Source of the DNA: a virus
Length of the DNA: 64,000 nucleotides
IMG/VR virus record: IMGVR_UViG_3300025154_000061
Span: 28,260 to 92,259 of that record
Strand: one strand, 5' to 3'
Each line of letters starts with the position of its first letter. Position 1 is the stretch's first letter. The translations under genes and the position numbers were made by a program. This document shows, in pieces, positions 2 through 26,356 of this stretch. Under the pieces are notes generated by a model. It was given only the letters and a program-made list of their open reading frames with translations. It had not been told where the DNA came from and searched no databases.

Positions 2-1501
2 CTTGACGTTGGCGAAATGGTGGCTTACGCTACCGGCCCGACGGGGTTAGATGAAAGGGGCGGGGATGAAGCGCAAGGTGATTCAGGGGAAGTGCGTCGA
101 GTGCGGCTCGCAGATCGAGATCGTGGGATACAATCGGTGTCACCTTTACGAGACGACGGGCCGGGGGTACTGCTCGGAAGTCTGCAAAAAGACTTGGATG
201 TCCCGCCGTTGGTCAGAAACGATGGCCCGCACGAATCGAGTTTACGCGTCGGCGAGGATGCGCAAGCACAACCCGATGCACGACCCCGAAGTGCGCGAGG
301 CCGTGACTGCGAAAGCTCGGGCTCGTGGTTGGCCTGTCGGCGTGCCGCGAGGGGGGAACGGGCACGGGCCGACGAGCGCGCAATCGACGTTGGCACTCGC
401 TCTTGGCTGGGCGATCGAAGTAGCTGTGCCGACGGGCAGGGGGGCTCGCGCGAAGGGATTCCCGCCTTGCTACAAGATCGACGTAGCGAATCCGGCCGCG
501 AAGATAGCCGTCGAGATCGATGGATCGGGGCACACCTCGACGCGCGTCAAGCTAGCCGACGAGCGCAAGGCCGCGTTCTTGCGTGGGCTCGGGTGGAAAG
601 TATTACGATTCAAGAATCAGGAAGTGATATCGGATCTTCCGACGGTGATTGCCTCGATTATGTCTACAATTTAGAAGTCGAGGGCGTGCATACATATACG
701 GCGAATGGCTTTGTCGTGCATAATTGCCACCACCTCTCGGGGCAGGGCGACGCGTGGCGCGCCGCCGCGAATGCGATCGAGGCCCGGCACCGCTTCGGGC
801 TGTCGGCAACGGTCGGGCTCGACCCCGTCGGCGAGAACGATGCAACCGACGTTTGGCTTCGCGCCGTCTGCGGCCCGATCGTCTACGAGGTTGCGATCTC
901 GACCTTGATCGAGGCGGGTTACCTCGTGCGGCCGACGATCCGCTTTTTGCGCCACGGGGCGCCCGATCTGCCTTACGACCGTTGGTCGACGCGCGCCTAC
1001 GCCGACGGGATCTCGAAGTGCGAGAAGCGCAACGAGAGGATCGTCGCCGAGGCTGCGCGCTACGCGGGGCGCGGGCTGCGCGTGCTCGTCGACGTCGCCC
1101 GCGTGGGGCACGCCCGAGCCCTCGCCAACGCCTGCGCAAAGGCCCTTCCGCCCGGCCGGGTCGCCCTACTGCTCGGCACCTCGTCGGGCGACGAGCGCGC
1201 GGCCGTCGTGGCGTCGTGGCGTCGTGGCGAAGTGCTCGTCGTGGTCGGGACGATCCTCGGCGAAGGCGTCGACATTCCCGAACTCTCGGTCGTGATCAAC
1301 GCCGAGGGGGGCAAGGCGAACGTCTCGGGGCTTCAACGCCTGCGCAACCTGACGCTCTCGCCCGGTAAGACCGAGGCGATCGTCGTCGAGTTTCTCGACA
1401 CGCATCACCCGCACCTCTGCGATTGGACGGCACGCCGCCTCGCGCTCTACAGGCGTGAACGCGCCTTCAAGATCGAGGCTGAACCGAAGGGGGCAACGTG
1501 A
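2..1501 (+). CDS. Superfamily II (DExH) helicase, 5'-truncated by window edge, intein-containing
   Basis: Frame open from base 2. After the intein end (VHN) it reads CHHL (second half of DExH motif II), GLSAT (motif III), GTILGEGVDIP (motif V) and a motif VI-like QRLR. Confidence 0.85.
   Translation, partial: LDVGEMVAYATGPTGLDERGGDEAQGDSGEVRRVRLADRDRGIQSVSPLRDDGPGVLLGSLQKDLDVPPLVRNDGPHESSLRVGEDAQAQPDARPRSARGRDCESSGSWLACRRAARGERARADERAIDVGTRSWLGDRSSCADGQGGSREGIPALLQDRRSESGREDSRRDRWIGAHLDARQASRRAQGRVLAWARVESITIQESGSDIGSSDGDCLDYVYNLEVEGVHTYTANGFVVHNCHHLSGQGDAWRAAANAIEARHRFGLSATVGLDPVGENDATDVWLRAVCGPIVYEVAISTLIEAGYLVRPTIRFLRHGAPDLPYDRWSTRAYADGISKCEKRNERIVAEAARYAGRGLRVLVDVARVGHARALANACAKALPPGRVALLLGTSSGDERAAVVASWRRGEVLVVVGTILGEGVDIPELSVVINAEGGKANVSGLQRLRNLTLSPGKTEAIVVEFLDTHHPHLCDWTARRLALYRRERAFKIEAEPKGAT
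3..31 (+). promoter_or_regulatory. Sigma70-like promoter for the nested endonuclease
   Basis: TTGACG-17bp-TACGCT, same hexamers and spacing as the promoter at 57836-57864. Confidence 0.6.
51..674 (+). CDS. DUF559/Vsr-like (PD-(D/E)xK) endonuclease with N-terminal Zn-binding segment, nested in +1 frame inside intein
   Basis: CVECG...YCSEVC, then YKIDVANPAAKIAVEIDGSGH...DERKAAFLRGLGWKVLRFKNQEV. ATG66 follows AAAGGGGCGGGG and may be the true start. Confidence 0.85.
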   Translation: MKGAGMKRKVIQGKCVECGSQIEIVGYNRCHLYETTGRGYCSEVCKKTWMSRRWSETMARTNRVYASARMRKHNPMHDPEVREAVTAKARARGWPVGVPRGGNGHGPTSAQSTLALALGWAIEVAVPTGRGARAKGFPPCYKIDVANPAAKIAVEIDGSGHTSTRVKLADERKAAFLRGLGWKVLRFKNQEVISDLPTVIASIMSTI

Positions 1502-1743
1502 AGAACCTTCTCGCTTGGTTGGGATTGAAGCCGAGGCCCGCGAACGGACACGCGACCAATCCTCGCGCGACGCTTCCGGGGGTGCCCGACGTAGATCCGG
1601 CGCTCGCGCACTTCCGCCGCGACGACTCGGGGCGCCGCCTCTGCGCCTGCGGGAACGTGGCGAAGGGCGGGCGGGCGCAGTGTGGGCCGTGCTCGCGCGG
1701 CGAGCGCTTCGTTCGCTTCGGGGGAGGCGAACCGAATTTCTAG
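1498..1743 (+). CDS. Small Cys-containing hypothetical protein
   Basis: GTGA overlap with helicase stop; CACG...CGPC. Confidence 0.6.
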   Translation: MKNLLAWLGLKPRPANGHATNPRATLPGVPDVDPALAHFRRDDSGRRLCACGNVAKGGRAQCGPCSRGERFVRFGGGEPNF

Positions 1744-1757
1744 GCTCGGGGGATCCA

Positions 1758-2513
1758 ATGCCGACGCGGGAAGAGATCGTCGCGGGTATCGATCAAGCTC
1801 GGGGCCTTACGCCGCCCCTCGAAGTGCTGCGCGCGTGCCGCCGACTGACGCTGTCGGGGGTGTCGAGCGTTCCGGCGCTCGTTGACGGGCGTTGGTTCGC
1901 GGTCGTGTCGACGGCGACCTCGACGTTTGCAATGCCGATCGCCGGGTCGACCTCGCGCGTCGGCCGCCTCTACGACCGGATCTTCCCGGTCGGGACGCGC
2001 TCGGTGCTCTTCGGGGTTCACCATTGGGCGTTGCACCCCGTGCTCGTCGCGCTGGCGTGGCGCAAGCTCTACGGGGCATGGCCGACGCCTCGCGAGGCCG
2101 CCTGTATCTTCGTTCACGATCTCGGCTACCTCGGGAAGCGCACGATCGACGGCGCCGACGGCAAGCGTCACCCGGTCGCCGGGGCGACGATCGCCGAGCG
2201 CCTCTTCGGCGCCGAGTGGGGGGCGCTCGTGCTCTTCCATTCGGGCGACTTCGCGAAGGCGAAGGGCGGCGCGATCTCGAAGCTCTACGCCCCCGACAAG
2301 CTCTCGTTCTCGCTCTACCCGCGCGCCCTCTATCTCGCCCTCGCCCGGTTGACGGGCGAGCTTCACGAGTATCGGGCGACGGCCGCGATCGCGGGGGTCG
2401 TCGACGAGCACCTTCCCGACGTCGTTTGGTTCGACGTGATCTCTGCGCGCATGGCGGCGAAGGCTTCAAGATCGGCCGCTGCGTTCAGGGCGGCAGGGGG
2501 CGACAGGGGTTGA
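1758..2513 (+). CDS. HD-like domain phage protein
   Basis: GVHHWALHP...FVHDLGY...HP...FHS...PDK; GGGGG RBS before ATG1758. Confidence 0.55.
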   Translation: MPTREEIVAGIDQARGLTPPLEVLRACRRLTLSGVSSVPALVDGRWFAVVSTATSTFAMPIAGSTSRVGRLYDRIFPVGTRSVLFGVHHWALHPVLVALAWRKLYGAWPTPREAACIFVHDLGYLGKRTIDGADGKRHPVAGATIAERLFGAEWGALVLFHSGDFAKAKGGAISKLYAPDKLSFSLYPRALYLALARLTGELHEYRATAAIAGVVDEHLPDVVWFDVISARMAAKASRSAAAFRAAGGDRG

Positions 2514-2673
2514 CGATGCGCGTCGATCGCTGCTACCTTCGAGCCCGCCTTCCGTTTCCTTCCCATTCGCTCGGGGTCGGCCGGGAGATCGCGCGGGCTG
2601 CCTCTCGCGTGATCGCCCACGGGGGCCGACCCTCGCCACGATTCGGCCGCACAACGTTACCGCAGGGCGCCGC

Positions 2674-3588
2674 ATGAAGCGCCCCGCCTTCTGCCCGCTC
2701 GACGCGCTGCGCGCCTACCTTGGCGCGATTGCGAGCGGGCTCGGGGGCGACGGGGCGATCGAGCAGATCGCGCGCGTGACGCAGTGTTCCCGGGCTGGCG
2801 TCTACCGCCTGCTCGACGATCTTCGCGGGGTGGGGCTCGTGAACGGCGATCGCCTCGTGCTCTTCGCAAAGGGGTTGACGGTTCATTCTCATGCGCCGGG
2901 CGAAGAGTGCGCGGGCGAGATCGTGCTGACGCTCGCCGAGTCGGCCGATATGCTCGCCTGCGCTGCCGCCGGGCCGCTGCCGTGCGCCAACCTTCCGCTT
3001 GCGCTGTTGCCCGAAGAGCGCGCCAAGCTCGCCGCCGAGCTTCGACAAGGGGCGGCCGAGATCTGCGTCGTGCGCGAGAGGCGCCGCGAGAAGATCACGC
3101 CCGACGACGAATACCTCTTTCGGCTCTACTCGGCCCGTCGCGTGCGGATCGACGTGGCGTGGTCGGGCGGTCGCTGCCCGAAGAAGATCGCCGACGCCCG
3201 GCGCCTGCTCGTGCGACACCACGTCGAGAAGCCGCAGTTCGCCGCCTATCTCGATTGGCTTTTCGAGAACTTCCCGAAGTGGTCGAAAGAGAAATTGCAC
3301 TACCCGCCGATCGGGATCGTGGCGTCGCAGTCGGTGATCGACTCGTTTGTCGCGACGCTCGGGGAACGCCCGTTGAACTGGCGACGCGCCGTCGAGATTC
3401 TCGCCGAGGGGGGCTTCGCCGACGTCAACGTCTTCGTCGCCCTCGACGTCGCCAAGATCGCTCGCGCCAAGAACCGCGACCCGCGCACGCTGCGCGGGCT
3501 CGACGGGCGCTACCCCGACGCGGTCGCCTACCTGCTCGAACGCTACGCCGAGATCGGGATCCTACCCACCGAAGAGGCCGCCCTATGA
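2674..3588 (+). CDS. HTH-containing protein, possible replication initiator or helicase loader
   Basis: IEQIARVTQCSRAGVYRLLDDLRGVGLV is wHTH-like; ATGA-coupled to the helicase gene. Confidence 0.5.
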   Translation: MKRPAFCPLDALRAYLGAIASGLGGDGAIEQIARVTQCSRAGVYRLLDDLRGVGLVNGDRLVLFAKGLTVHSHAPGEECAGEIVLTLAESADMLACAAAGPLPCANLPLALLPEERAKLAAELRQGAAEICVVRERRREKITPDDEYLFRLYSARRVRIDVAWSGGRCPKKIADARRLLVRHHVEKPQFAAYLDWLFENFPKWSKEKLHYPPIGIVASQSVIDSFVATLGERPLNWRRAVEILAEGGFADVNVFVALDVAKIARAKNRDPRTLRGLDGRYPDAVAYLLERYAEIGILPTEEAAL

Positions 3589-4910
3589 CCACGACGATCG
3601 ACGTAGAGTTCGAGCGAGACGTTGTCGCCTCGTGCCTGCGCGACGAAGACTTCGTGCGCGCTGCGCTGCCTACGCTCTCGCGGCACAATTTCTCGTCGAA
3701 GCCCCTCGCGTTCCTGTGGGATGCGATCTCGACGAACTTCGTCGGCTCGCGCGAGCTTGTGACGCCGCGCCTGCTCTTCGCCAGGATCGATCGCGACTTC
3801 GCCCGCGAGGAAGAGCGCGACTTCATGCTCGACGTCGTGCGCGGGCTCTACGCCCGCAAGCCTGCCGCGCCGCGATCGTCGCTCGACCAGATCCGCGAGT
3901 TCGTGCGCCTGACCTCGGCCCGCGACACCGTCGGCGAGATCCTCGAAGGGCTTGACTCGGGGGATCTCGCGCGGGCCGAGGCCGCCATGATTGCCGGGAT
4001 CGAGCGCGCGAGGAAGGTCGTCGACGACGACGAGCCCGTCGAGTGGGCGACGTCGGCCTCGGCCCGCCTCGATCGCTACCGCCGCGAGAAGTCGATCGCC
4101 TCGATCAAGACGCCGCTCGAATCGCTGAACCGCTTCCTCGGGGGCGGGATGCGCCCCGGGCACCTTGGCTTGATCGTGGCGACGACGAACGTCGGCAAGT
4201 CGTCGCTCGCGACTGACTTCGGCTACTGCGCCGCCTTCCATTCCGACGCCGCCGTGATTCACCTCACGACCGAAGAGCCCGAATTCGAGCAGTCGGCCCG
4301 CTACGACAGCCGCTTCACGGGGATCGAGCGTTCGAAGTTCTTGCGGGGGGATCTGAGCGAGGCCGAAGAGATCTTCTACCTCGACCGCTTCAAGAGGCGC
4401 GAGGCCGAGATCAACCGGATCGCCGTGAAGGAAATCGGGACCGGGGGAAGCGCCGTTGTCGTGCGCCTGCTCGCCGAGTGGGCGAGAAGGAAGCACCCGA
4501 CGCGGCCCCTGCTCGTGATCGTCGACACGCCCGATCAATTGAAGATGCCGGGCAAGAGCGAGTCGAAGCGCCTCGACGCGACCGACGTCTATCTCGGGCT
4601 GCGTGGCATGGCGTTAGACAAGTCTTTAGCCCCGATCGCGGTGTGGGCAGTCACCCACGCCCCGGCCGCGTTCGAGGGGAAGAGCTTGACCCCGAAGGCC
4701 GTCAGCGAGTCTTACGACAAGGCGCGCTGTGCCTCGGTCATGGTAGGCGCCGAGGAAAAGGGCGATCTGCCGTCGGGCAAGAAGACGATCGTCGTGCGAA
4801 TCGTGAAGAACCGTCTCGGCCCCGTGAAGCATTACCGGATTTACACCGAGGCAGACTTCGGGATCTGCAAGTTCGAAGAGGTCGCGGGATGCGAGGAAGA
4901 CGAGGAATAG
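3585..4910 (+). CDS. dnaB: DnaB-like replicative helicase
   Basis: LNRFLGGGMRPGHLGLIVATTNVGKS (Walker A), HLTTE, LVIVD, IVKNR; followed by primase. Confidence 0.8.
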   Translation: MTTTIDVEFERDVVASCLRDEDFVRAALPTLSRHNFSSKPLAFLWDAISTNFVGSRELVTPRLLFARIDRDFAREEERDFMLDVVRGLYARKPAAPRSSLDQIREFVRLTSARDTVGEILEGLDSGDLARAEAAMIAGIERARKVVDDDEPVEWATSASARLDRYRREKSIASIKTPLESLNRFLGGGMRPGHLGLIVATTNVGKSSLATDFGYCAAFHSDAAVIHLTTEEPEFEQSARYDSRFTGIERSKFLRGDLSEAEEIFYLDRFKRREAEINRIAVKEIGTGGSAVVVRLLAEWARRKHPTRPLLVIVDTPDQLKMPGKSESKRLDATDVYLGLRGMALDKSLAPIAVWAVTHAPAAFEGKSLTPKAVSESYDKARCASVMVGAEEKGDLPSGKKTIVVRIVKNRLGPVKHYRIYTEADFGICKFEEVAGCEEDEE

Positions 4911-5920
4911 CCCGCGCCTTCGACGTCGAGGGCTACGTCGATCGCGAGATCGGGGTCGTCTCTCGCTCGACCGGGAAGCACGGCGCCGAGTTGATCTGCG
5001 TCTGCCCGTTCTGCGGGCGCCCGAAGCTCTACGTCAACGTCGAGTCGGGGCTTTGGGTCTGCTACCGCTGCGCGCCGAAGGGCGGCACCGTGATCGACCT
5101 CGTCGCCAAGACGCAGGGGATCCCGCGATCGCAGGCTCGCGAGATCGTCGCCGACCCGAAGAGCGCCCCGGGCGAGTCGCTCGAACGGATCGCCGAGCGG
5201 GCCGCCGCCTCGCTCGACGAAGAGGCCCGGCACGAGCGGCGGATCGACGCCCCGCGCGTCTCGCTCGACGTGGGGCTGCCCGACGAGTTCGTGCCGATCT
5301 TCGACGCCGCCTCGGGGACGTGGCGGATCCCCGACTACTGCCGCGAGAGGGGCATTCGCGGCCGCACCGCCCGCGCCTACGGCCTCGGCTATTGCACGGG
5401 CGGCCGCTACGGCGGGCGGTTGATCTTCCCGGCGCACGTCTTCGGCGAGACGGTCACGTTCCAAGGGCGGATCATGCGCCCGCTGGCAGACGACGAGCAC
5501 GTTCCGAAGTATCTCGGCCCGTCGGTCGAGAAGAGCGTCGCCGTCTACGGGCTCGACGAGGCGATCGGGGTGCGCCGCGTGGCGCTCGTCGAGGGGCCGA
5601 TTGACGTCGTGAAGCTCTATCAATTCGGCGTGCCTGCGGTCGCCCTTATGGGCAAGTCGGCGAGCATGGGGCAGGCGACCACGCTTTCGCGAGCGGGGTT
5701 CAGGTCGATCGACCTACTGCTTGACGCCGACGATCCGGGGATAGAAGCTCGCGCCGACGCCGTCGCGGTCTTGGGTCTGACCTTCGACGTTAGACTTGCC
5801 TTTCTACCCTACGGGGTCGATCCGGGGTCTGCGACCCGCGACCAAGTCGAAGACGCTCTCGCCCTCGCCCGTGCCCCGAAACTTAGCGAAACGATTGGCC
5901 GATCTAGAAAAGCGACGTGA
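4889..5920 (+). CDS. dnaG: DNA primase (Zn finger + Toprim)
   Basis: CPFC...CYRC, GRLIFP, PKYL, LVEGPID, LLLDAD; start uncertain. Confidence 0.85.
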   Translation: MRGRRGIARAFDVEGYVDREIGVVSRSTGKHGAELICVCPFCGRPKLYVNVESGLWVCYRCAPKGGTVIDLVAKTQGIPRSQAREIVADPKSAPGESLERIAERAAASLDEEARHERRIDAPRVSLDVGLPDEFVPIFDAASGTWRIPDYCRERGIRGRTARAYGLGYCTGGRYGGRLIFPAHVFGETVTFQGRIMRPLADDEHVPKYLGPSVEKSVAVYGLDEAIGVRRVALVEGPIDVVKLYQFGVPAVALMGKSASMGQATTLSRAGFRSIDLLLDADDPGIEARADAVAVLGLTFDVRLAFLPYGVDPGSATRDQVEDALALARAPKLSETIGRSRKAT

Positions 5921-5926
5921 TCTTTT

Positions 5927-5964
5927 CAAAAAGTATTGACGTGCCTATCCTCCCCGACTATACC
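5927..5964 (+). promoter_or_regulatory. Sigma70-like promoter with A-tract
   Basis: CAAAAAGTA-TTGACG-17-TATACC; near-identical at 7027 and 53912. Confidence 0.75.
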
Positions 5965-6002
5965 TGTAGTCGACCGCCACGACGGCGGGGAAGGGGCACC
6001 CA

Positions 6003-6935
6003 ATGACGACCGAACGACCGACGCTGCGATTCGGGGTTGCGACCGTTGCAGTTCGTGACGACCTGACGCCTTACGACGAAGTCTTCGTTCCCGAGTGGGA
6101 CGAGAATTTCCAAGTCGACGACCGGCTCTTCGAGACGCTCGCCGTCTGCGCCGCCGACGATATCCCCGCGCTGCTCGTCGGCCCGGCCGGGTGTGGCAAG
6201 ACGCAGGGCGTCAGAATGATCGCCGCCCTTCTGAATCAGCCCGTGCGCAAGATCTCGCTGAACGCCGACGTGCGGTCGAGCGACTTCGTCGGGCAGAAGT
6301 CGATCGACGTCGACGAGGCGACGGGCACCTCGATCGTCACCTTCAAAGACGGGATCCTTCCCGACGCTATGCGGCGCGGTCATTGGTTGGTTCTCGACGA
6401 GTTCGACGCCACGCCCCCGGGGATCGCCTTCGTGCTGCAAAGCGTGCTCGAACCCGGTCACGTCTTGACGCTGCTCGACAACTACGGCGAAGTCGTGACC
6501 CCGCACCCGAGCTTCCGCCTCTTCGCCACGGGCAACACGATCGGCAAGGGCGACGAGTCGGGACTCTACACCGGAACGAACGTCATGAACGAGGCGACGC
6601 TTGATCGCTTCGTCACGATCGAATGCACCTACGTTGTCCCGTCGGTCGAGTGCGAGATCCTGACCTCGAAGACGGGCGTCGCCGCGCAGATCGCGAAGCG
6701 CCTCGTCGACGTGGCGACGCTCGTTCGGCAGGGGTTCGACAAGAACGAGTGTTTCTGCACCTTCTCGACGCGCCGCCTGCTCGCGTGGGCTGCCTTCACG
6801 ACCCGGTTCGGCGCCAACGACGCCGCCGTCGTGCGGGGCTACAAGCTCGCGGTCGCCTCGAAGCTCGGCCGCGAGGATCGGCTCTACGTCGCCGGGGTCG
6901 TTCAGCGTGTGATCGGCCTCGACGTCGCTCGCTAA
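6003..6935 (+). CDS. CobS/MoxR-like AAA+ ATPase
   Basis: GPAGCGKT, LVLDE, FRLFATGN, NEATLDRF, STRRL. Confidence 0.9.
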   Translation: MTTERPTLRFGVATVAVRDDLTPYDEVFVPEWDENFQVDDRLFETLAVCAADDIPALLVGPAGCGKTQGVRMIAALLNQPVRKISLNADVRSSDFVGQKSIDVDEATGTSIVTFKDGILPDAMRRGHWLVLDEFDATPPGIAFVLQSVLEPGHVLTLLDNYGEVVTPHPSFRLFATGNTIGKGDESGLYTGTNVMNEATLDRFVTIECTYVVPSVECEILTSKTGVAAQIAKRLVDVATLVRQGFDKNECFCTFSTRRLLAWAAFTTRFGANDAAVVRGYKLAVASKLGREDRLYVAGVVQRVIGLDVAR

Positions 6936-7026
6936 CCCCGCCCCGTCGGTGTGCATCATGAAGAAAATCGACCCTCGCCCCGGCCGCCCTCGGGGCGGGG
7001 CTGCGCCTCTCGTGTCGATTTCTAGT

Positions 7027-7064
7027 CAAAAAGTATTGACCCGTTGCGGCGCCCCGACTATACC
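7027..7064 (+). promoter_or_regulatory. Sigma70-like promoter with A-tract
   Basis: CAAAAAGTA-TTGACC-17-TATACC. Confidence 0.75.
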
Positions 7065-7100
7065 TGTGGGCGAGGGCACGACGCCCGAGGGGTTGACGAA

Positions 7101-9386
<2,286 letters not shown>

Positions 9387-9390
9387 GGTC

Positions 9391-15026: not shown

Positions 15027-15308
15027 ATGAAGAGCACGAACCAATCGACCCTTGCAGACGTCGCCCGCCGAGCGGGCGTCGACGCAGAGGTCGCCGAGAA
15101 GATCGTCGAAGCGCTGCTCGAAGAGGCGAAGCTCGGCCGCAAGGTTTGGATCCGCTCGCTTGGGATCTTCCGGGTGACGCATACCAAGGCCCGCGAGCAC
15201 GCGACGCCGCTCGTGCCCGGGGGGATCGCCAAGATTCCCGCGCGCTGCGTGCTGCGCTTCCGCAGTTCCGAGGCCGCGCAAGAGTTCTTGAATCGGGGGC
15301 AGGCGTGA
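15027..15308 (+). CDS. HU/IHF-like DNA-binding protein
   Basis: VWIRSLGIFRVTHTKAR...IPARCVLRFRSS; about 93 aa. Confidence 0.85.
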   Translation: MKSTNQSTLADVARRAGVDAEVAEKIVEALLEEAKLGRKVWIRSLGIFRVTHTKAREHATPLVPGGIAKIPARCVLRFRSSEAAQEFLNRGQA

Positions 15309-17202: not shown

Positions 17203-17237
17203 AACCTTCAACCCGGGAACTTGATCGAGGTCTTTCA

Positions 17238-18374
17238 ATGTCGCACCGTGGCGCGTTCAGCACGAAGAAGGCGAAGTCGATCGCGAGCGCCCTCGCCCGC
17301 GATAAGGCGTTCGCCGAGTTCGACGATATCGTCGCGACGCGACGACGCACGACCTCGATCTCGACGGGGTCGCCAACCCTCGATCTCGCAATCGGGATCG
17401 GGGGTTGGCCCCTCGCCCGGCTCTCGATCCTTCACGGGGGCGAGGCGACCGGCAAGACGACGATCGCTCTCGAAGCGGTCGCGCAGTGGCAGCGCGCCGG
17501 GGGCGTCGTGCTCTACGCCGACGTCGAGCACGCGCTCGATCTCGACTACCTCGCCCGCGTCGTGCCCGATCCCGAGGGGATCATTCTGACGCACCCGCCC
17601 TATATCGAGAAGGGCTTCGAGTTGTTCGCCGCCTTCATCGATCGGGCGCGTGCCGCGAGCGTCGACGCGCCGCTCTTGATCGTGCTCGACTCGTTGCAGG
17701 CGTGGCCCGCAATGCGCACGTTCAACGGCGAGTATGATCGCCAGGACTACGGCCCCGAGGCGAACGCCTATTCGCGCGTGCTGCGCAAGTTCACCCCCAA
17801 GCTCTCGACGAGCAACACCGCCATGATCGCGATCTCGCAAGTGCGAACCAAAATGGACGGGTGGGGGAACTCGAAAGAGAAGGTCGGCGTCGGTCAAGCG
17901 CCGCTCTTCTATGCCAGCGTGATCGCCGACGTGAAGTCGAAGACCTTGCGCGGCACGACCGCCGAGGGCGTGACCGGGAATCACCTTCGGGTTCGCGTCG
18001 TCAAGAACAAGGTCGCCCCGCCGTTCCGCACGGCCGAGTTCGAGATCATCTTCGGCAAGGGCTTCGACCGCGTGCGCGCGCTCGTCGACTGCGCCAAGAC
18101 GATCGGCGTCGCCCGTGCCTTGAAGGGGAAGATCCTTTGGACGATCGACGGCGCCAAGGCCGACGCCTCGGGGCGAGCCTACGAGTGGGCGGCCGACGAT
18201 CTGTCGAGTCTGCTCGTGAAGGCGCCCGACCTCTACGACGGGCTCTTCGATCACGTTCACGATCTGCTAGTCGCCCGGCCCGACTTGATCGCGGTCGAGG
18301 TCGACGCCAGCCCCGCCGAGATCGACCTCGACGCGCCGCCCGCCGACGCGCCCGAAGACGAGGGCGACGCGTGA
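17238..18374 (+). CDS. recA: RecA recombinase
   Basis: ISTGSPTLDLAIGIGGWP, GGEATGKTT, DVEHALD, IVLDS, ISQVR, VKNKVAPPFR. Confidence 0.95.
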   Translation: MSHRGAFSTKKAKSIASALARDKAFAEFDDIVATRRRTTSISTGSPTLDLAIGIGGWPLARLSILHGGEATGKTTIALEAVAQWQRAGGVVLYADVEHALDLDYLARVVPDPEGIILTHPPYIEKGFELFAAFIDRARAASVDAPLLIVLDSLQAWPAMRTFNGEYDRQDYGPEANAYSRVLRKFTPKLSTSNTAMIAISQVRTKMDGWGNSKEKVGVGQAPLFYASVIADVKSKTLRGTTAEGVTGNHLRVRVVKNKVAPPFRTAEFEIIFGKGFDRVRALVDCAKTIGVARALKGKILWTIDGAKADASGRAYEWAADDLSSLLVKAPDLYDGLFDHVHDLLVARPDLIAVEVDASPAEIDLDAPPADAPEDEGDA

Positions 18375-19180
18375 CGCTACCGCACGACAAGCCCAAGAAG
18401 CCCGCGAAGCGCAAGCGCCCGGCCCGGCCCGAGGTCTTCGCGCGGTCTGCGGGGATCACCGCGCCGCGCCGCGATTGGGAAGCCGTGGGGCTAGACGTGT
18501 CTATCAATCACGCCGGGGCGGTCAAGCTCGACGGCGTCGACGGGGAGCTTCTCGACTTCGCGTTCTTGACGCCCCTCGTCGGGCTCGCGAAGTCGAGCCG
18601 CTCGTTCGGCACGCGGATCCCCGCGTTCAAGCAGGCCGACGTCGAGCGGCACCAATCCGAGATCGACCGCCTGCGTTGGTTGCGCGAGTGGTTCGGCCGC
18701 CTCGCCGACCGCCTCTTCCCGCTCGACGGGGTCGACTACTTCGTCGCGATCGAAGACTACGCTCTCGACGCCGCCCGGGGGGCTCACCAAATGGGCGAGG
18801 TCGGGGGAGCGCTGCGGTTGGCGTTGTTCGACTTCGCCGCCCGGCACCCCGGCCGCTCGATCAACCTGCGCTTTTGGGAACCGGGTTCAGTCAAGATCTT
18901 CGCGACCGGCAACGGCAACGCCGAGAAGGAACTCGTCGGCGAGTGCGCTCGCGCCAAGTGGCGCACCGCGCCGCTATTCGGCGACGACGACGTCGACGGG
19001 GATCTCGCCGACGCGCACACCCTCGCCCGCATGGTTTGGCGCGAGTGCCGCGTTCGCCTCGGTCGCGACGCGCTCGCCGACCTGCCCGACGAAGAGCGCC
19101 GGATCTTCCTGCGCACCACGAAGAGCGAGCCCGTCGCGGTATGCGACAGGCCGTTCGCGAGCTACCATGCCCCCGCGTAA
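18371..19180 (+). CDS. RuvC-like Holliday junction resolvase
   Basis: VGLDVSINHAGAV, VAIEDY, VKIFATGNGNAEK, DLADA. Confidence 0.75.
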   Translation: MTLPHDKPKKPAKRKRPARPEVFARSAGITAPRRDWEAVGLDVSINHAGAVKLDGVDGELLDFAFLTPLVGLAKSSRSFGTRIPAFKQADVERHQSEIDRLRWLREWFGRLADRLFPLDGVDYFVAIEDYALDAARGAHQMGEVGGALRLALFDFAARHPGRSINLRFWEPGSVKIFATGNGNAEKELVGECARAKWRTAPLFGDDDVDGDLADAHTLARMVWRECRVRLGRDALADLPDEERRIFLRTTKSEPVAVCDRPFASYHAPA

Positions 19181-20036
19181 CCTTCGAGAACTCGGCGCCG
19201 AGTGGGCGACGTGCGCGCGTTGCCCGTTGCACGAGCGGCGCTCGTGCGTGATCGTGGGGGCTGCGGTCAAGAACGCGCCGACCGTCGACGATCCCCTTCT
19301 GCTCGTGATCGGCGAGGCGCCCGGCAGCGAGGAAGACGCCGAGGGCGTGCCGTTCGCCGGGAAGGCCGCCCGGGTCTTGCACGACGAGATCTTCGCGGGG
19401 GCTGGCGTTAGGCTTGCCTATGTCTCGAACTGCGTCGGCTGTCGCCCGCCCGGCAACCGCACCCCGGCACGCGCCGAGATCGAGGCGTGCGCGCCGCGTG
19501 TCGCTGCGTTGATCGAACTCACCGCGCCCGACGCGATCGTCGTGGTCGGCCCGGTCGCCGAGGAAGCCCTCGCCTCGGGGGTGTGGGGCGAGGGGGCCTC
19601 GACGCTGCCTTCCTGCGCGATCCTTCACCCGGCGACCCTTCTACACCGGGGGCACCCGACCGACGCAACGCGCCGGGCTTTGCGCGCCGAGGTCGCCAAG
19701 ATCTCGCGCCTGCTCGTGCGCCTCGGGGCGAAGAGGCCCGCCAAAGCCGAGCCCGTGCCCGAGGTCGCCGAGGTCGTCGCGCCCGAGTGCGCGCACGTCG
19801 GGGTTCCGCTCGGTCGGCTCGTCGCTCGCGACGGCCGCGAGGCGCCCCTCGTAGTTTGTCGCGAGTGCGGCGTCGCCCTCTCGGATCCCAAGGCGGCAGG
19901 ATTGACGCCAAGGCGTTCCGGCCGTCGAGGGGATACGACGTCAGGGGGCGCGCGCTCGAAACGCGCCACAATCGATCCTCGTGCGTCAGGCGACGAACGG
20001 GAGGGGGTAGACGATGCGACTCGCAACGATCGGTGA
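19167..20036 (+). CDS. udg: Uracil-DNA glycosylase, family 4-like
   Basis: CARCPL, IGEAPG, NCVGCRPPGNRTP, HPA. Confidence 0.9.
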   Translation: MPPRNLRELGAEWATCARCPLHERRSCVIVGAAVKNAPTVDDPLLLVIGEAPGSEEDAEGVPFAGKAARVLHDEIFAGAGVRLAYVSNCVGCRPPGNRTPARAEIEACAPRVAALIELTAPDAIVVVGPVAEEALASGVWGEGASTLPSCAILHPATLLHRGHPTDATRRALRAEVAKISRLLVRLGAKRPAKAEPVPEVAEVVAPECAHVGVPLGRLVARDGREAPLVVCRECGVALSDPKAAGLTPRRSGRRGDTTSGGARSKRATIDPRASGDEREGVDDATRNDR

Positions 20037-21264
20037 TCTTCACGTCGTCGACGGTGAACTCGACACGCAAGGCCCCGTGCTCGACGAGATCGCCGCAGGG
20101 GTCGAAGAGGCCCGGCCCGATCTCGTGCTCGTCGTGGGCGATCTGTCGGGACACCGCGTCCCGCACAAGGCGACGCCCCGCGAGCGAAACGCGCTCGTCG
20201 GCTTCTTCGCGAAGCTGGCGCAGTGTGCGCCCGTCGTGATCGTGCGGGGGAATCACGACTACCCGCGCGATTGGGAGTTCCTGAACGCGATCGGCGGGCA
20301 TTCGTTCTACTCGATCGGGTTCGTCGACGAGCCTTCGACGCTGACCGCTGGCAAGGCGGGGGCGCTCGCGCTCGTCGCGTGCTTCCCGTGGGTCGACCGT
20401 TCCCGGTTCGGTCCCGACGTCGACTACGGCGAGGCCGTGCGCACGCTCTACGACGCCGTCGTCGACGAGGCGCGCTCGACGATCGCCACGCTGCCCGACG
20501 ACGAGTTGCCGAACGCCGTGGTCGCCCTCGGTCACTGCGCGATCGCCGGGGGCATGATCGGGATCTTCGGTCAACCGTCGGTCCCGACCGCCGATCCCGT
20601 GGTCGCGATCGACGACGTCTGCCCGAGCGACGTCTTCGACGCGGGGTTCTTCGGGCACTACCACGCGCCGCAGGAACTACCCCGAGAGGGCGAGAGCGGG
20701 GGCGCCGCGTGCCGCTACGTGGGAAGCGCTTTCGTGTCGCAGCACGGCGAAGCGACCGCGAAGTCGTGGGGCGTGGTCGATATCTCGGGCGAGGGCAAGG
20801 CCCGAGCGCGAGAGATCCCGATCCCGCAGGCCCCGCGCGTGCTCTTGCGCGTCGACGGCGTCGCCCGTCGCATCGTCGAGATCGTGCCCGCCGCCCTTGT
20901 CGGGCTCTCGGCCGGGACGTTGATCGACGAGTGCAAGCCGATCGCCTTACCTCGGGGCGCGCCGAGCGCGAGCGTGAAGGTGCGGATCGAGGGGGCGATC
21001 TCGATCACCGAGGCGGCCCGCGCGTTCGATGAGATCGCCGCGTTGGTCGCCCCGGCTGCGCACTCGATCAAGCGCGAGTTCGCGATCGAGCGCGTCGCCC
21101 GTGCTCGCGAGGGCGCCGACGAGATCGCCAAGGCGACGACGACGGCCGACAAGCTCGCGCGCTACCTCGACACGATCAACCCCGCGCCGAGAGGCGTGAT
21201 CCGCAAGCGGGCGATCGCGTTGCTGGCCGAAATCGAAGCGACGCTCGACGCCCCGATCGCGTAG
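20014..21264 (+). CDS. sbcD: SbcD/Mre11-like nuclease
   Basis: GDLH, GD, RGNHD, GHYH, YVGS. Confidence 0.9.
   Translation: MRLATIGDLHVVDGELDTQGPVLDEIAAGVEEARPDLVLVVGDLSGHRVPHKATPRERNALVGFFAKLAQCAPVVIVRGNHDYPRDWEFLNAIGGHSFYSIGFVDEPSTLTAGKAGALALVACFPWVDRSRFGPDVDYGEAVRTLYDAVVDEARSTIATLPDDELPNAVVALGHCAIAGGMIGIFGQPSVPTADPVVAIDDVCPSDVFDAGFFGHYHAPQELPREGESGGAACRYVGSAFVSQHGEATAKSWGVVDISGEGKARAREIPIPQAPRVLLRVDGVARRIVEIVPAALVGLSAGTLIDECKPIALPRGAPSASVKVRIEGAISITEAARAFDEIAALVAPAAHSIKREFAIERVARAREGADEIAKATTTADKLARYLDTINPAPRGVIRKRAIALLAEIEATLDAPIA
21238..21263 (+). promoter_or_regulatory. GCGACG-N16-CGTA putative phage promoter
   Basis: Exact motif upstream of ORF 21298. Confidence 0.6.
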
Positions 21265-21297
21265 TTCGGGCGAGGCGCGCACACCACGGGGGCGATC

Positions 21298-21636
21298 ATG
21301 ACGACCGACGGCAAGCTCGACGTCACCAAGTCGACGAAGAAGCGGGGCGATCTCGCCCCGGGCGCAGCGAGTGAGGCCGTGCCGGTCCCCTCGGGGCTGG
21401 CGCCTTCGGCGCACGAGCCCGAACATAGGTTCGCGCGGATCCGCGTGAACAAGGGGGCGACGATCAACATTGGCCGAATGGAGTTCCTTCGCTGCGACGT
21501 CGCGGTCGAACTCCCGTGCAAGCCCGATCTCGCCTCGCTCGACCGGGCGATCGATATCGCCGATACGATCGCGAACGACCGCCTCGTCGCTGAGATCGAG
21601 AACGCCCGCAAGCAGTCGGGCGGGGGCGACAAGTGA
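21298..21636 (+). CDS. Hypothetical protein
   Basis: GGGGG RBS; GATINIGRMEFLRCDV; GTGA-coupled to next gene. Confidence 0.65.
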   Translation: MTTDGKLDVTKSTKKRGDLAPGAASEAVPVPSGLAPSAHEPEHRFARIRVNKGATINIGRMEFLRCDVAVELPCKPDLASLDRAIDIADTIANDRLVAEIENARKQSGGGDK

Positions 21637-23459
21637 AGACCTACCCCTCGCTCTTGCGCGCCGCGAAGATCGAAATGCACGGGGCCTTTCAGCCCCGCAA
21701 GATCGACGGGCTCTTCTCGGCCGACGACGTCGAGAAGATGCGCCAAGGCGGCCGCGACGCGGGCCGCCCCTCGGGGTGGGATCCCGCGCGCTACGAGCCG
21801 ATCAAGGTGTGGAACCCCGACAGCAACGACGCGACCTGCCCGGCCGCGCTGCGCGATCGCTTCGCCGAGTGGTTCGTGATCAAGGGCTTTCACCGCCTCG
21901 CGCTGGCGAGGGCGTGCGGGATCGAGTCGCTCGACGTGATCGTCTGCGCGGGCTCGTTCGACGAGGCGGTCGCCGCGAGCAAGCGCTCGAACTTCGAGAC
22001 GCGCGCGCTTCACCCGATCGACGAAGCCGCCGTCTATCGCGATCGCCTTGAAGCGGGCGACACGCCCGAGCAGATCTCGCGCGACCTCGACCGCCGCGCG
22101 CCCGCCTACTACCGCAAGCGGGCCGCCGTCGCCTACCTGTCGCCCTCGTTGATCGCCGACGTGCGCTCGGGGCTTCTGCGCCTCGACTACGCCGAGCACG
22201 TCGGCCGCGCCGCGCAAGTCGGGGCGAGCCCGGCCGCGCAGGTCGCGATCGCCTCGGTCGCTGCCCGAACTTCCATGCGCGCCGAGCTTTTCGGGCGTTA
22301 CGTCGACAAGGTGATCGCCGCAATTGCCGCCGCGAAACCGGGCGAAGACGTGGTCGACGTCGCCGCCCGCGAGGGGAAGACGCTTGATCTCTTCCCGCCG
22401 ACGTTCGACGCGGGGGTCGCTGCCGTCGAGTCGATCACGATCGGCGAGGCTCGACGCGAGAGCGTGCGCGACGGGTGGGCGTCGATCGGGCACGCCGCCC
22501 GAGCGCAGTTGAAGCGCCTCGAAACCGAGGGGGTTCCGCCCCCGCCCGCCCTTGGAAGGTTGATCGCCATGATCGATAAGCAGCGCGCAGGGGAAGACAG
22601 GGCGGTCGCCGCGAGCGTCGGGGCAACCGACACGCGCGAAGCGCTGCCGTTGATCAAGTGGGTCGGGTCGAAGCGCACCGAGGCCCCGACGCTCGCCGCG
22701 ATCATTCGCGCACGCCTGCGGCCCGGCGCCGAATACTTCGAGCCCTTCTTCGGATCGGGCTCGGTCTTCTTCGCCGTCGCCCCCGAAACCGCCGTGATCG
22801 GCGACGTGCTCGAACCCGTGGTAAACCTTTACAAGTCGACCCGAGACGACCCCCGCGCGGTCTTCGCCGCCATGCGGGCGATCGTCGAGAAGGGGCTCGA
22901 CAAGGCGTCGTTCCTCGCCGCCCGTGACGCCGACCCGCCCGCCGATCGCTTCGAGCGCGCGGGGTGGTTTCTCTACCTGAACCGCACGGGGTTCAACGGG
23001 CTGTGGCGCACGAACAAGTCGGGCAAGCTGAACGCCCCCTTCGGCACGCCGAAGACCGTCGCCGCCTTCCCGACGCTCGATCGCTTCGAGCGCTGCGCCG
23101 AGATTCTCTCGGGCGCCGTGCTCTACTGCGGCGACTACTCGAAGGGCGTCGCCCGCGCCAAGGCTGGCGACGTGGTCTTCGCCGACCCGCCCTACCCCGG
23201 CACGTTCAGCGACTACGCCAAGCGCACGGGGCCGATCGACTACGCCAAGCTCGCCGCCGACCTGCGCGCCGCGCACGATCGGGGGGCGCACGTCGTGACG
23301 ACCCTCGCCGCGAGCGAAGACCTCGACGCGCTCTTCTCGCCTTGGTGCTACCGCGTCGACCTTTCGCGCACCTCGAACGTCTCTTGCAAGGCGTCGACGA
23401 GGGGCGAGTTCAAGCAGGTCGTTTGGTGCTCGCACGAGCGAGAGGGGGCCGCCGAATGA
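21633..23459 (+). CDS. ParB-like domain fused to Dam-type (D12 class) DNA adenine methyltransferase
   Basis: N-terminal FQPR...VIKGFHRLALA...SN...LHPIDEA + HTH; C-terminal LIKWVGSKR, EPFFGSGSV, YLNRTGFNGL, DPPY. Confidence 0.85.
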   Translation: MKTYPSLLRAAKIEMHGAFQPRKIDGLFSADDVEKMRQGGRDAGRPSGWDPARYEPIKVWNPDSNDATCPAALRDRFAEWFVIKGFHRLALARACGIESLDVIVCAGSFDEAVAASKRSNFETRALHPIDEAAVYRDRLEAGDTPEQISRDLDRRAPAYYRKRAAVAYLSPSLIADVRSGLLRLDYAEHVGRAAQVGASPAAQVAIASVAARTSMRAELFGRYVDKVIAAIAAAKPGEDVVDVAAREGKTLDLFPPTFDAGVAAVESITIGEARRESVRDGWASIGHAARAQLKRLETEGVPPPPALGRLIAMIDKQRAGEDRAVAASVGATDTREALPLIKWVGSKRTEAPTLAAIIRARLRPGAEYFEPFFGSGSVFFAVAPETAVIGDVLEPVVNLYKSTRDDPRAVFAAMRAIVEKGLDKASFLAARDADPPADRFERAGWFLYLNRTGFNGLWRTNKSGKLNAPFGTPKTVAAFPTLDRFERCAEILSGAVLYCGDYSKGVARAKAGDVVFADPPYPGTFSDYAKRTGPIDYAKLAADLRAAHDRGAHVVTTLAASEDLDALFSPWCYRVDLSRTSNVSCKASTRGEFKQVVWCSHEREGAAE

Positions 23460-26356
23460 AGATCGAACGCGTGCGCCTCGACGGGATCACCCGCTACCGC
23501 AGGCCGATCGAACTCGCGCTTCCCGAGGGGGTCGTCGCGATCGTCGGGCCGAACGGGTGCCTACAGGGCGACGTAGAGATTTACGATCCAACGGACGGAT
23601 CGTCCGTCGCCGTTCGCGATCGTTACAATCGGGGCGTGCCGTTTCACGTATGGGCGTTAGGGCCGCATGGGGTCGTAACGACGGCCGCAATGCCCCCTTG
23701 CAAGTATCCGCCCGCTCAAATGCTGCGATTGCGGTTCGCGGACGGGAAGTCGATTACGGTGACTCCGGCGCACAAGTTTTGGAGCGGCGCCGAGTGGTTG
23801 ACAGCTTCCGCCATTTTTCAAGCCCTGCGAGAGAACGGGCGCGTCCGGCTGCCGTCCAGTTCGGCCGCTTACCTGTCAACTCATGCCGAAGATGATCTGC
23901 GTTGGTGCGAAATAATTCCAGATTCTCCGGGCGGTTGTCGGCGTGTTCCCCGTTGCGATGATGCACGACTTCTTCCGGCAGAAGTCGGCGCCCGAGAATC
24001 CGTTCCATTACGAGGCGATGCTCCCGAACTAGCCCTTTGCGATCTGCGTCGGGGTGATACGGAAGCCGTAGAAGAATGTAGCCGTCGGCGTCAATCACCC
24101 GACCGCCGCGCCACGACCCATTGCGAGCGCCCGGCGCTCCCCGGTCACGAATCGCTCCTCCGACGTTGCGGATTGCCTTCGCGATCCGGCTTTGATTCGA
24201 GTGCATTGACCGGGCGATCTCCGCGAGACTCGCCCCGCTCTCGTAGCGTGCAAGAGCTTCGCGCCTCCGCTCATCCGTCCAATTCTGACGCATCGACGCC
24301 CCCCGGGGTTATGGTTCCTTTCGAAACATACCCCGCGATTGACCCGTCGACAATCGAAATTGTCGCGGTTGGCGAGCTACCGTGCGAGCCTTACTACGAC
24401 TTCCACGTCCCGGTTCACCTAAACTATTGGGCCGCCGGGGTCTGGAATCACAACTCCGGCAAGACGACGCTTCTCGAATGCCTCGGCCCGGCCGTCTTCT
24501 TCCGCGAGTTGCCGACCCGCGAGCCCTCGGGAATCCAGAATTGGATCGGGCCGAAGGGCGGCCGGATCGAACTCGACTTCGTGCGGGGCTCGCGCCGCTA
24601 CGAAGCGATCGTCGAGATCGACGGGTCGGGCAGGCAAGCCGCGTTCCTGACGTGCGACGGGGTCAAGCTCGCGTCGGGCAAGGTGCGCGACTACGACGTC
24701 GAGATCGCGAAGGTGGTCGGCAACCGCGACGCCTTCTACGCCTCGGTCTTCGGGATGCAGGGCGGGGGCGGGCGCTTCGAGTCGCTCGAAGTCACCGACC
24801 GCAAGGCGATCTTTCGCTACTACCTCGGGCTCGACCGGGTCGACAAGGCGCACCGCGCCGCCCGCGCCCGCCTCGAAGCGCTCGACGTCTCGAAGATCGC
24901 CACGCTGCGCGCCGATCTCGAAGCCTGCGAGACGGCGATCGCCGAGGCCGAGGCCGACGTCAAGGCTGCGGTCTTCGCGGCCGACGCCGAGCGCGAGGTA
25001 AGTCGCAAGGCGCGCGCCAAGCTCGACGACCTGCTCGCGCTCTCGTCGACGGCCGAACTCGTCGACGCCTACGACACCGCTCTCGACGCGGCGGGCGAGG
25101 CGCAAGACGCGCTCACCGCCCTACCTGCCCGCCCGGCCGCCGCGCCTGCGCCGACGGGCGACAAGGGCGCCGCTACGATCGCCTTAGAGGCCGCGAGGAA
25201 GAAGAACGAGGGCTACCTCGTCAAGAGCGCCGAGATCGCCCGCGTCGGCTCTTCGCTGGCGACGGCGAACGCCGACCTCGTGCGGGCGAACAAGGCGACC
25301 GAGCGTCTCGCGCGCGTGCCGTGCAAGGGCGAGGGCGCCTTCGCCGGGTGCGAGTTGCTGCGCGACGCGATCGCCGCGCGCGAATCGATCGCTGCGCTGC
25401 GCGACGTGTGCGCCAAGGCCGAGCAGGCGCACGAGACGTTGAAGGTCGAGGTCGCCGCGCTCGTCGTGCCCCGCGAGAAGCTCGACGCACTGCGCGCCAA
25501 GGTCGCCGAGGCCGAGCGGGAACTTGAAGCGCACCGCCTCGGGGCCGAGCGCTGCCGCGCCTACGACGAGAAGCGCGATCGACTGAACCGTGCGCTCGCT
25601 GACGCGAAGAGGCAGGCCGCCGCGCTGCGTGCCCGGCTGCCGAAGGTGATCGACGACGTGCCGTCGCTGGCGCAGATCGACGCCGCTCGCGAGGCGAGCG
25701 CCGCCGCGAGTGCCGCCTACGAGAAGGCGATCCGCGAGCACGAGGCGGGCGTCGCTGCGTTCGGCGGCGCCCTCGATCGCAAGGCCGGGATCGAGAAGGC
25801 CCTCGCCGCCGAGGAAGCTCGCGCCGCCGACGCGCCCGCGCTCGAACTGCTCGCCCGCGCTCTCGGGGCGAACGGGATCCAAGCCTACGAGATCGACGCC
25901 GCAGGCCCCCGCGTCTCGGCCCTCGCGAACTCGCTCTTGCATGCCTGCTACGGGCCGCGCTTCGACGTCGAGGTGCGCACGACGAAGGCGTTGAAGAGTG
26001 GCAAGGGCGAGAAGGAAGACTTCGACGTCGTCGTCTACGACAACGACAGCGGGATCGAGAACACGATCGCCGGGCTGTCGGGGGGCGAGAAGGTGATCGT
26101 CGACGAGGCGCTTCGGCTGTCGCTCGTGATCTTCGCCGACGAGCGCCTCTCGGTTCCGTTCCGGGTGCTCTACCGCGACGAGACGATCGGCGGGCTCACC
26201 CGGGACAACCGCGCCGCCTATGCGCGAATGCTTCACCGCGCCCGCGATCTCGGCGACTTCGGGCAGATCTTCCAAGTGACCCACGACGAAGAGTCGAGCG
26301 AGAGCGCCGATGTCGTGATCGCGATCGACGAGTCGGGCAATGTCTCGGTCGCATGA
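23456..26356 (+). CDS. sbcC: SbcC/Rad50-like SMC ATPase, intein-containing
   Basis: GPNG/[intein]/SGKTT Walker A, Q-loop MQG, coiled coil, LSGGE, DE, QVTH. Confidence 0.92.
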   Translation: MKIERVRLDGITRYRRPIELALPEGVVAIVGPNGCLQGDVEIYDPTDGSSVAVRDRYNRGVPFHVWALGPHGVVTTAAMPPCKYPPAQMLRLRFADGKSITVTPAHKFWSGAEWLTASAIFQALRENGRVRLPSSSAAYLSTHAEDDLRWCEIIPDSPGGCRRVPRCDDARLLPAEVGARESVPLRGDAPELALCDLRRGDTEAVEECSRRRQSPDRRATTHCERPALPGHESLLRRCGLPSRSGFDSSALTGRSPRDSPRSRSVQELRASAHPSNSDASTPPGVMVPFETYPAIDPSTIEIVAVGELPCEPYYDFHVPVHLNYWAAGVWNHNSGKTTLLECLGPAVFFRELPTREPSGIQNWIGPKGGRIELDFVRGSRRYEAIVEIDGSGRQAAFLTCDGVKLASGKVRDYDVEIAKVVGNRDAFYASVFGMQGGGGRFESLEVTDRKAIFRYYLGLDRVDKAHRAARARLEALDVSKIATLRADLEACETAIAEAEADVKAAVFAADAEREVSRKARAKLDDLLALSSTAELVDAYDTALDAAGEAQDALTALPARPAAAPAPTGDKGAATIALEAARKKNEGYLVKSAEIARVGSSLATANADLVRANKATERLARVPCKGEGAFAGCELLRDAIAARESIAALRDVCAKAEQAHETLKVEVAALVVPREKLDALRAKVAEAERELEAHRLGAERCRAYDEKRDRLNRALADAKRQAAALRARLPKVIDDVPSLAQIDAAREASAAASAAYEKAIREHEAGVAAFGGALDRKAGIEKALAAEEARAADAPALELLARALGANGIQAYEIDAAGPRVSALANSLLHACYGPRFDVEVRTTKALKSGKGEKEDFDVVVYDNDSGIENTIAGLSGGEKVIVDEALRLSLVIFADERLSVPFRVLYRDETIGGLTRDNRAAYARMLHRARDLGDFGQIFQVTHDEESSESADVVIAIDESGNVSVA
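23754..24293 (-). CDS. HNH homing endonuclease with N-terminal HTH, antisense inside the SbcC intein
   Basis: WRGGRVIDADGYILLRLPYHP...VREHRLVMERILGRRLLPEEVVHHRNGEHADNRPENLELF; G-run RBS upstream of ATG. Confidence 0.88.
   Translation of the reverse strand: MRQNWTDERRREALARYESGASLAEIARSMHSNQSRIAKAIRNVGGAIRDRGAPGARNGSWRGGRVIDADGYILLRLPYHPDADRKGLVREHRLVMERILGRRLLPEEVVHHRNGEHADNRPENLELFRTNADHLRHELTGKRPNWTAAGRARSLAGLEKWRKLSTTRRRSKTCAPESP
24325..24353 (-). promoter_or_regulatory. Sigma70-like promoter for the antisense HNH gene
   Basis: Minus strand TTGTCG-17-TATGTT, about 30 nt upstream of ATG24293. Confidence 0.55.

Follow-up and report, generated by a model that had tools for sequence, protein, structure and literature searches.

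We analysed a 64,000-nucleotide stretch of viral DNA, referred to below as the window, which comprises bases 28260–92259 of IMG/VR virus record IMGVR_UViG_3300025154_000061 (92 kb, ∼68% GC). The window carries two inteins, one in a helicase gene and one in the gene of an SbcC/SMC-like ATPase, and inside each intein lies an endonuclease gene that is not in frame with its host: an EDxHD/Vsr-like (DUF559) gene in the +1 frame of the former and an antisense HNH gene in the latter. A profile search of the whole 92-kb record returned no inteins besides these two and a single match each to DUF559 and HNH_3, both of them inside inteins.

The visible part of the helicase gene spans positions 2–1501 (plus strand). 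The full open reading frame (ORF; L001, 605–3001; 798 aa) begins 895 nt before the window; the N-extein matches ResIII (E = 1.6e-13) and DEAD, and the C-extein matches Helicase_C. The intein interrupts motif II at DE/CHH (the slash marking the junction) and comprises 319 aa (L001, 1268–2224, equivalent to window −232 to 724). Its first 232 nt lie upstream of the window, in which the last 241 codons are visible (2–724, plus strand). The intein runs from CFPAGT to VVHN/C and contains Cys1, block B (TPNH) and a C-terminal His-Asn followed by a +1 Cys, which is the Cys of the CHH in the DECH box (725–727, plus strand). Its excision would restore motif II across DE/CHH, and an intein-free helicase, L063, reads IIDEAH. 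The intein scores 38.7 bits against Pfam Intein_splicing (cut-off 35.8). In the AlphaFold2 model, residues 1–91 and 268–319 have a predicted local distance difference test score (pLDDT) above 90, and the top Foldseek matches are the Mtu RecA and Ssp DnaB mini-inteins. Residues 92–267 (41–568, plus strand) form a stop-free spacer in the host frame with pLDDT below 50 and no secondary structure.

The SbcC/SMC-like gene (23456–26356, plus strand) has weak matches to both SMC_N and AAA_23. Its ATG overlaps the stop codon of the upstream D12 methyltransferase gene (ATGA, 23456–23459), which suggests that the two genes are translationally coupled. The intein (299 aa; 23558–24454, plus strand) sits in the P-loop (GPNG/SGKT) and extends from CLQGD to NHN/S, with Cys1, a TPAH block whose His72 is invariant and a +1 Ser belonging to the SGKT of Walker A (24455–24457, plus strand). 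Removal of this intein would restore Walker A as GPNG/SGKT. Its model has pLDDT values of ∼80–89 at residues 1–95 and 68–86 at residues 260–299, and Foldseek matches it to the Mtu RecA mini-intein with E = 6e-7; taken together, the two intein models match the Mtu RecA and Ssp DnaB mini-inteins with E ∼1e-6 and template-modelling scores of up to 0.8. The host-frame spacer (residues 96–259; 23843–24334, plus strand) is also free of stops and has pLDDT below 50, with two short helices of low confidence.

The gene nested in the helicase intein (51–674, plus strand, 207 aa from ATG 51) encodes a zinc ribbon followed by an EDxHD/Vsr-like nuclease domain. It matches DUF559 with E = 4e-12 (46.3 bits, cut-off 20.6; 1e-13 in a second search), and a profile of nested EDxHD proteins finds the structures 3hrl (DUF559, 6e-12) and I-Bth0305I (3r3p, 0.005). 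In an alignment with ten relatives, Glu155, Asp157, His161 and Asp170, the catalytic set, are invariant. The four Cys residues of the zinc ribbon are also conserved among these relatives, three of them nearly, not strictly, invariantly. An in-frame TAG immediately precedes ATG 51, and a second ATG, which is likely to be the start codon, follows at position 66 behind AAAGGGGCGGGG.

The gene nested in the SbcC intein (23754–24293, minus strand, 179 aa) encodes an N-terminal helix-turn-helix (HTH) and an HNH_3 nuclease (E = 4e-8, 33.1–35.5 bits, cut-off 24.8; 8.8e-10 in a second search). The HH-N-N motif is intact, and His111, His112, Asn114 and Asn124 are invariant among relatives. The HTH was identified from profile matches, and a profile search against structures found this part only. 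A single-sequence search of the PDB with the same ORF gave matches to kinases, which we dismissed as chance. A GGGGGG run lies 7–12 nt upstream of the ATG. The poorly conserved 3′ tail of the gene (23754–23842) overlaps the part of the host gene that encodes the N-terminal HINT half with its block B.

Given the models and the complete sets of Cys1, TxxH, His-Asn and +1 Cys/Ser, both inserts can be assigned to the class-1 inteins, with a HINT fold and intact splicing residues. The original prediction, made from the letters of the window alone, had proposed two such inteins with stop-free frames and is borne out in this respect. Its limits for the SbcC intein are correct, whereas position 2, given as the start of the helicase intein, is merely the beginning of the visible part, the true start lying 232 nt upstream. 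The centres had been described as ∼200 residues without a nuclease motif; a profile scan of the host-frame centres of both inteins indeed detected no nuclease family, but their size is 165–176 residues as judged by pLDDT below 50. The +1 DUF559/Vsr-like and antisense HNH assignments are confirmed by the profile matches, and the expected ribosome-binding sites and stops are there as well, since both nested ORFs have a Shine-Dalgarno (SD)-like run and a stop codon. The GC content of the nested genes (51–674 and 23754–24293) is 0.61–0.62 compared with 0.66–0.71 in the surrounding genome, which fits either a foreign origin or a dual-coding constraint.

Selection on the two reading frames

The nuclease ORFs extend beyond the spacers, and in the helicase intein one short region codes in both frames. 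Within this dual-coding stretch (569–674, plus strand), the same bases serve for the EDxHD C-terminus (last ∼35 codons, GLGWKVLRFKN...) and for the first strands in the C-terminal half of the HINT domain (ARVESITIQE...). The HINT strand at residues 270–283 (RVES[IV]xIQ) is modelled with a pLDDT of 96, and both motifs, GLGWKVLRFKN and RVES[IV]xIQ, are conserved across loci.

The open host frame could have been a chance shadow ORF of high-GC DNA. We permuted synonymous codons within each nuclease ORF, a procedure that keeps the protein and its codon usage, and counted stops in the host frame. Shuffling leads to an expectation of 5.1 (EDxHD) and 3.3 (HNH) stops in the inteins of the window, where none is seen; stop-free host frames arose in 0.1% and 0.9% of the shuffles, respectively (P = 0.001 and 0.009). 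Each of the 16 loci tested has zero host-frame stops compared with 3–19 expected, the probability of zero stops being at most 0.009, and 0 in the low-GC loci. In related contigs, the GC content is as low as 0.29; there, 9–19 stops are expected and none is found, and the layout as a whole spans a GC content of 0.29–0.69. The shuffle test and the recurrence at low GC content rule out chance shadow ORFs as an explanation.

Conservation follows the nuclease frame. Nucleotide identity at the first, second and third nuclease codon positions is.50/.58/.38 for EDxHD and.50/.57/.33 for HNH. At the protein level, relatives share 38–39% identity in the nuclease frame and 19–22% in the host frame, which is the level of a non-coding frame: the host frame of the helicase intein, at 22%, equals the non-coding third frame, and the host frame of the SbcC intein has 19% identity compared with 39% for the HNH frame.

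We also determined the ratio of nonsynonymous to synonymous substitutions (dN/dS; Nei–Gojobori) in both frames of the same nucleotides for closer groups of relatives, excluding the ends that overlap HINT strands. For the EDxHD group, the ratio is 0.11–0.24 in the nuclease frame and 1.1–2.0 in the host frame; the corresponding values for the HNH group are 0.08–0.33 and 1.4–3.6. This is the outcome foreseen for a per-frame comparison (nuclease frame 0.08–0.33, host frame 1.1–3.6 overall). Selection targets the nuclease frame, and in the intein frame only the avoidance of stops holds.

Relatives in other phages

By profile query, the EDxHD gene has at least 328 relatives in IMG/VR and the HNH gene has 238; we examined the best 80 of each set. 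Among these 80 EDxHD relatives, 75 are nested in the same relative frame (+1), two are truncated at the end of a contig and the other three are free-standing. In the 75 nested cases, as here, the host ORF is uninterrupted, and no fractured form occurs among the best 80 EDxHD loci. Among the 80 best HNH relatives, 31 share the antisense nesting and the relative frame of the HNH gene in the window (nuclease codon position 1 opposite host codon position 1), and these include all 25 closest relatives; another 47 lack a long overlapping ORF and are free-standing in appearance. The closest relatives of the nested nucleases are only 49–52% identical to them.

In keeping with mobility, each unit is found in more than one ATPase family. 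With host families judged from sequence, the EDxHD–intein unit is found at the Walker-B/motif-II sites (DE/C) of several different-looking helicases and ATPases. The hosts of the HNH–intein unit, judged likewise, are apparent terminases, a helicase-like ATPase and the SbcC-like ATPase, and most of its insertions are in P-loops (HHN/[ST]GK[ST]). For the HNH loci, we used C-junctions only, as N-terminal junctions obtained by regular expression are unreliable. Three antisense-HNH loci (L122, L126 and L127) have C-junctions that are not P-loops (HHN/TEGMGGYE, HHN/TFGAGGYE and HHN/TVIMDYYY) and use other host sites. In L171 and L172 (∼1756–3600), an HNH relative lies antisense in a long ORF in a relative frame unlike all others, and a simple search for an intein junction at these two loci gave none. 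Being unrelated, with separate sets of relatives elsewhere, the EDxHD and HNH units are of independent origin, as had been proposed.

The EDxHD family also occurs in other arrangements. Free-standing relatives are located directly 5′ of intein-free helicase genes (L063 and L091). In L091 (2968–5105), the helicase downstream of the free-standing gene switches frame exactly at the usual intein site (IIIDE / GHH); a frameshift, a repair scar and an assembly error could each account for this. At L031 (2560–3456) and L032, the EDxHD core is in frame with an intein of another ATPase (VVDE/C...VHN/C), which represents the canonical pairing. L033 (2578–3003) has a 142-aa mini-intein at DE/CHH with ∼38 codons of the nuclease 3′ end left in the +1 frame and looks like a product of endonuclease loss. 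A helicase on a 314-kb low-GC viral contig (L024, 1536–4433) contains two inteins: a mini-intein in the P-loop (ATG/C...VHN/SGKTE) without a nuclease, and a second intein at DE/C with a nested +1 EDxHD gene.

The genes surrounding the two inteins form a replication and repair module composed of the ResIII/DEAD helicase, a DnaB-like helicase, the D12 adenine methyltransferase and the SbcC/SMC-like ATPase. A transfer RNA scan of the window found none. Groundwater metagenomes contain DNA nearly identical to the window, and megablast of positions 1–6000 gave no match among GenBank phages.

Proposed mechanism and alternative explanations

We consider it highly probable that each locus is a composite selfish element, in which the slot of a class-1 intein is filled by a homing endonuclease gene of the free-standing type, placed off the intein frame. 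Translation of the host ATPase would continue across the nuclease DNA without a break, in a frame where selection maintains the absence of stops, and the off-frame product would form an unstructured spacer that has to be spliced out. Protein splicing would then excise the whole insert and restore the DECH box of the helicase and the Walker A loop of the SbcC-like protein. Synthesis of the nuclease would be separate, with initiation at a start codon of its own. For the +1 EDxHD gene, internal initiation on the host mRNA could suffice, and the antisense HTH-HNH gene would require a transcript of its own. Presumably, alleles that lack the intein are cleaved by the nuclease at the Walker-B or P-loop site in co-infected cells, and repair of the cut allele would copy intein and nuclease together.

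The anatomy, the HINT fold, the nuclease families with their catalytic residues, the selection on each frame and the recurrence in other phages are observed, whereas protein splicing, the separate expression of the nucleases, the site that they cleave and homing are inferred. Several results count against the proposed element. A sigma-70 scan around both nested genes, on both strands, detected no promoter, which concerns chiefly the antisense HNH gene; promoter-like elements had been claimed for both genes, and this claim is not supported, the hexamers near 38 (plus strand) and 24318 (minus strand) matching only 8/12 positions by eye. The SbcC intein scores 14–16 bits against Pfam Intein_splicing, which is below the cut-off (35.8), and its model was built on five sequences only. 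Purifying selection was measured among relatives rather than on the phage's own copies. Finally, one search pattern used to collect the EDxHD relatives, WKVLRFK, itself belongs to the dual-coded motif; this biases the survey towards nested forms, and nesting in this nuclease family may be less frequent than the proportion of 75/80 suggests.

Among the alternatives, the one that survives best is that the loci are relics whose inteins still splice while the nested endonucleases are no longer expressed or active, so that the elements are passed on by vertical inheritance only. The lack of a detected promoter agrees with this idea, and with nearest relatives that are just 49–52% identical, recent transfer of these copies is not demonstrable. 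However, both ORFs are full length and retain all invariant catalytic and zinc-binding residues, and dN/dS among relatives is 0.1–0.3. An unselected antisense ORF of 179 codons would also soon gain stops, of which the other frames of this stretch contain 4–7. We therefore regard the relic explanation as improbable.

A second alternative concerns the EDxHD gene alone, which might be made as a fusion by programmed +1 ribosomal frameshifting from the intein frame instead of from its own start. In its favour, the two frames share a strand, and the +1 relation is identical in the 75 nested loci. Against it stands the in-frame TAG directly 5′ of ATG 51. Moreover, an ATG is situated just 5′ of the zinc ribbon in 62 of the 64 distinct EDxHD ORFs that are nested, SD-like motifs precede 63% of the nested starts compared with 23% of control positions, and the upstream in-frame stop lies at a median distance of 8.5 codons from the ATG. 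The placement of the ATG, the enrichment of SD-like motifs and the short gap between stop and ATG favour separate initiation over a frameshift fusion. The fusion product would also be devoid of the C-terminal HINT half and unable to splice, and frameshifting is inapplicable to the antisense HNH gene. This makes a fusion very unlikely.

Slightly less credible still is the idea that the host-frame centre is functional, in true dual coding, or that the insert is retained in the mature protein as a tolerated loop, a possibility raised for the off-frame HNH insertion of ShiLan. Selection does keep the frame open, and insertions without splicing domains are known (ShiLan-type; PMC11855218). Nevertheless, host-frame identity is at the non-coding baseline, dN/dS in this frame exceeds 1 and pLDDT is below 50. 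The complete HINT halves that flank the centre speak against a retained loop, and an insert of 300 residues in Walker A or the DECH box is expected to abolish ATPase function.

The possibility of indel errors, which the original prediction had advised excluding by read mapping, was checked against metagenome contigs. A contig of 91x depth, possibly from the source sample, has zero differences across both frame junctions. Both are also spanned, with neither gaps nor differences, by low-depth contigs obtained independently from other groundwater and soil samples. Although the window stems from a metagenome assembly and in-frame EDxHD inteins exist (L031 and L032), the notion that sequencing or assembly indels mimic an out-of-frame layout in an ordinary endonuclease intein has a negligible chance of being right, since two compensating indels would be needed, the gap-free contigs and the same frame offset in 75 independent loci exclude such an error, and the antisense case could not be explained in this way.

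Relation to known systems

The original prediction presented these loci as a third, possibly new arrangement besides in-frame endonucleases and fractured genes. This does not hold, since antisense LAGLIDADG, antisense VSR-like, frame-3 EndoVII-like and +2-frame dnaX cases have already been described. Actinophage inteins with antisense LAGLIDADG, antisense VSR-like/EDxHD and frame-3 EndoVII-like endonucleases were reported by Gosselin, Arsenault and Gogarten (bioRxiv 10.1101/2025.01.02.630785), who credit the first antisense case (LAGLIDADG) to Gorbalenya 1998 and propose an origin by invasion of free-standing endonuclease genes. As in our loci, a complete endonuclease ORF lies off-frame or antisense between the splicing blocks of these non-canonical inteins and the intein frame is free of stops; the actinophage VSR-like nuclease is linked to EDxHD/3R3P, as is the EDxHD gene described here. 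The combinations differ, however: the actinophage list contains antisense VSR-like and in-frame HNH genes, whereas we find a sense-strand +1 EDxHD gene and an antisense HNH gene, and the hosts, a helicase and an SbcC-like ATPase, are unlike those of the actinophage cases. The same authors deem such layouts rare, whereas they form the predominant setting of our genes' nearest relatives in IMG/VR.

The cyanobacterial dnaX intein contains a LAGLIDADG endonuclease in the +2 frame (Phillips, DeSimone and Gogarten, bioRxiv 10.64898/2026.09.14.751524). It resembles the EDxHD case in its overlapping ORF on the sense strand, the upstream SD and the disordered in-frame centre, and, as at our loci, the endonuclease frame has a low dN/dS and the intein frame an elevated one. 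Nuclease family and frame offset are not the same, however, and the host is a bacterial dnaX gene instead of a phage helicase gene. Hidden out-of-frame HNH insertions without an intein are known from phage DNA methylase genes (ShiLan-type; Arsenault et al. 2025, PMC11855218). These HNH genes are also concealed in a stop-free host ORF, but they lie on the sense strand and have no splicing domain, whereas a complete HINT domain surrounds the HNH gene described here, which is antisense. I-Bth0305I, the prototype of EDxHD nucleases (PDB 3R3P; Taylor et al. 2011, PMC3239194), shares the Vsr-like catalytic core with the nested EDxHD protein, although sequence similarity is remote; it is encoded in a group I intron, whereas our gene is nested in an intein and has an added N-terminal zinc ribbon.

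In fractured genes, a free-standing Vsr-like or GIY-YIG endonuclease gene lies between the halves of a split intein (Dassa et al. 2009, PMC2677866). The helicase intein shares with them the Vsr-like/EDxHD family, the slot between N- and C-terminal splicing halves and the helicase-type phage host. In both, the 3′ end of the nuclease gene overlaps the C-intein coding region, by 6–69 bp in fractured genes and by ∼100 bp here. The host of a fractured gene is divided into two ORFs and spliced in trans, whereas the contiguous intein described here would splice in cis. Since nuclease family, slot and 3′ overlap agree, a link between the helicase EDxHD intein and fractured genes is plausible; the original prediction had suggested that such loci may be precursors of split inteins.

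In our literature search, we found no account of an intein that contains an EDxHD gene in the +1 frame of the sense strand or an HNH gene in antisense. The design itself is already published (1998; 2025–2026), and it is both nuclease/orientation combinations and their commonness that go beyond those papers. Two such units in one genome are a pleasing example and not a new principle. Tentatively, and with the odds somewhat against us, we suggest that the +1 EDxHD unit (Walker-B) and the antisense HTH-HNH unit (P-loop) represent two large undescribed lineages, that the architecture is common in environmental phages, and that the contiguous EDxHD intein is possibly an ancestor or sister of the Vsr-type fractured split inteins. 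If this is true, one stop codon and a restart could convert a contiguous EDxHD intein into the fractured form, or the reverse.

With these loci, two combinations of nuclease and orientation join the few published cases of off-frame intein endonucleases. Gene callers will overlook such nested nucleases, and their inteins get annotated as endonuclease-less or 'degenerate'. In loci of 0.29–0.69 GC content, a junk frame is kept open by selection solely so that it can be spliced away. The layout supports the view that in intein evolution the splicing domain came first and the endonuclease invaded later, and the free-standing, nested out-of-frame, in-frame, remnant-bearing mini-intein and fractured forms provide a natural series on which ideas about the origin of split inteins could be tested.

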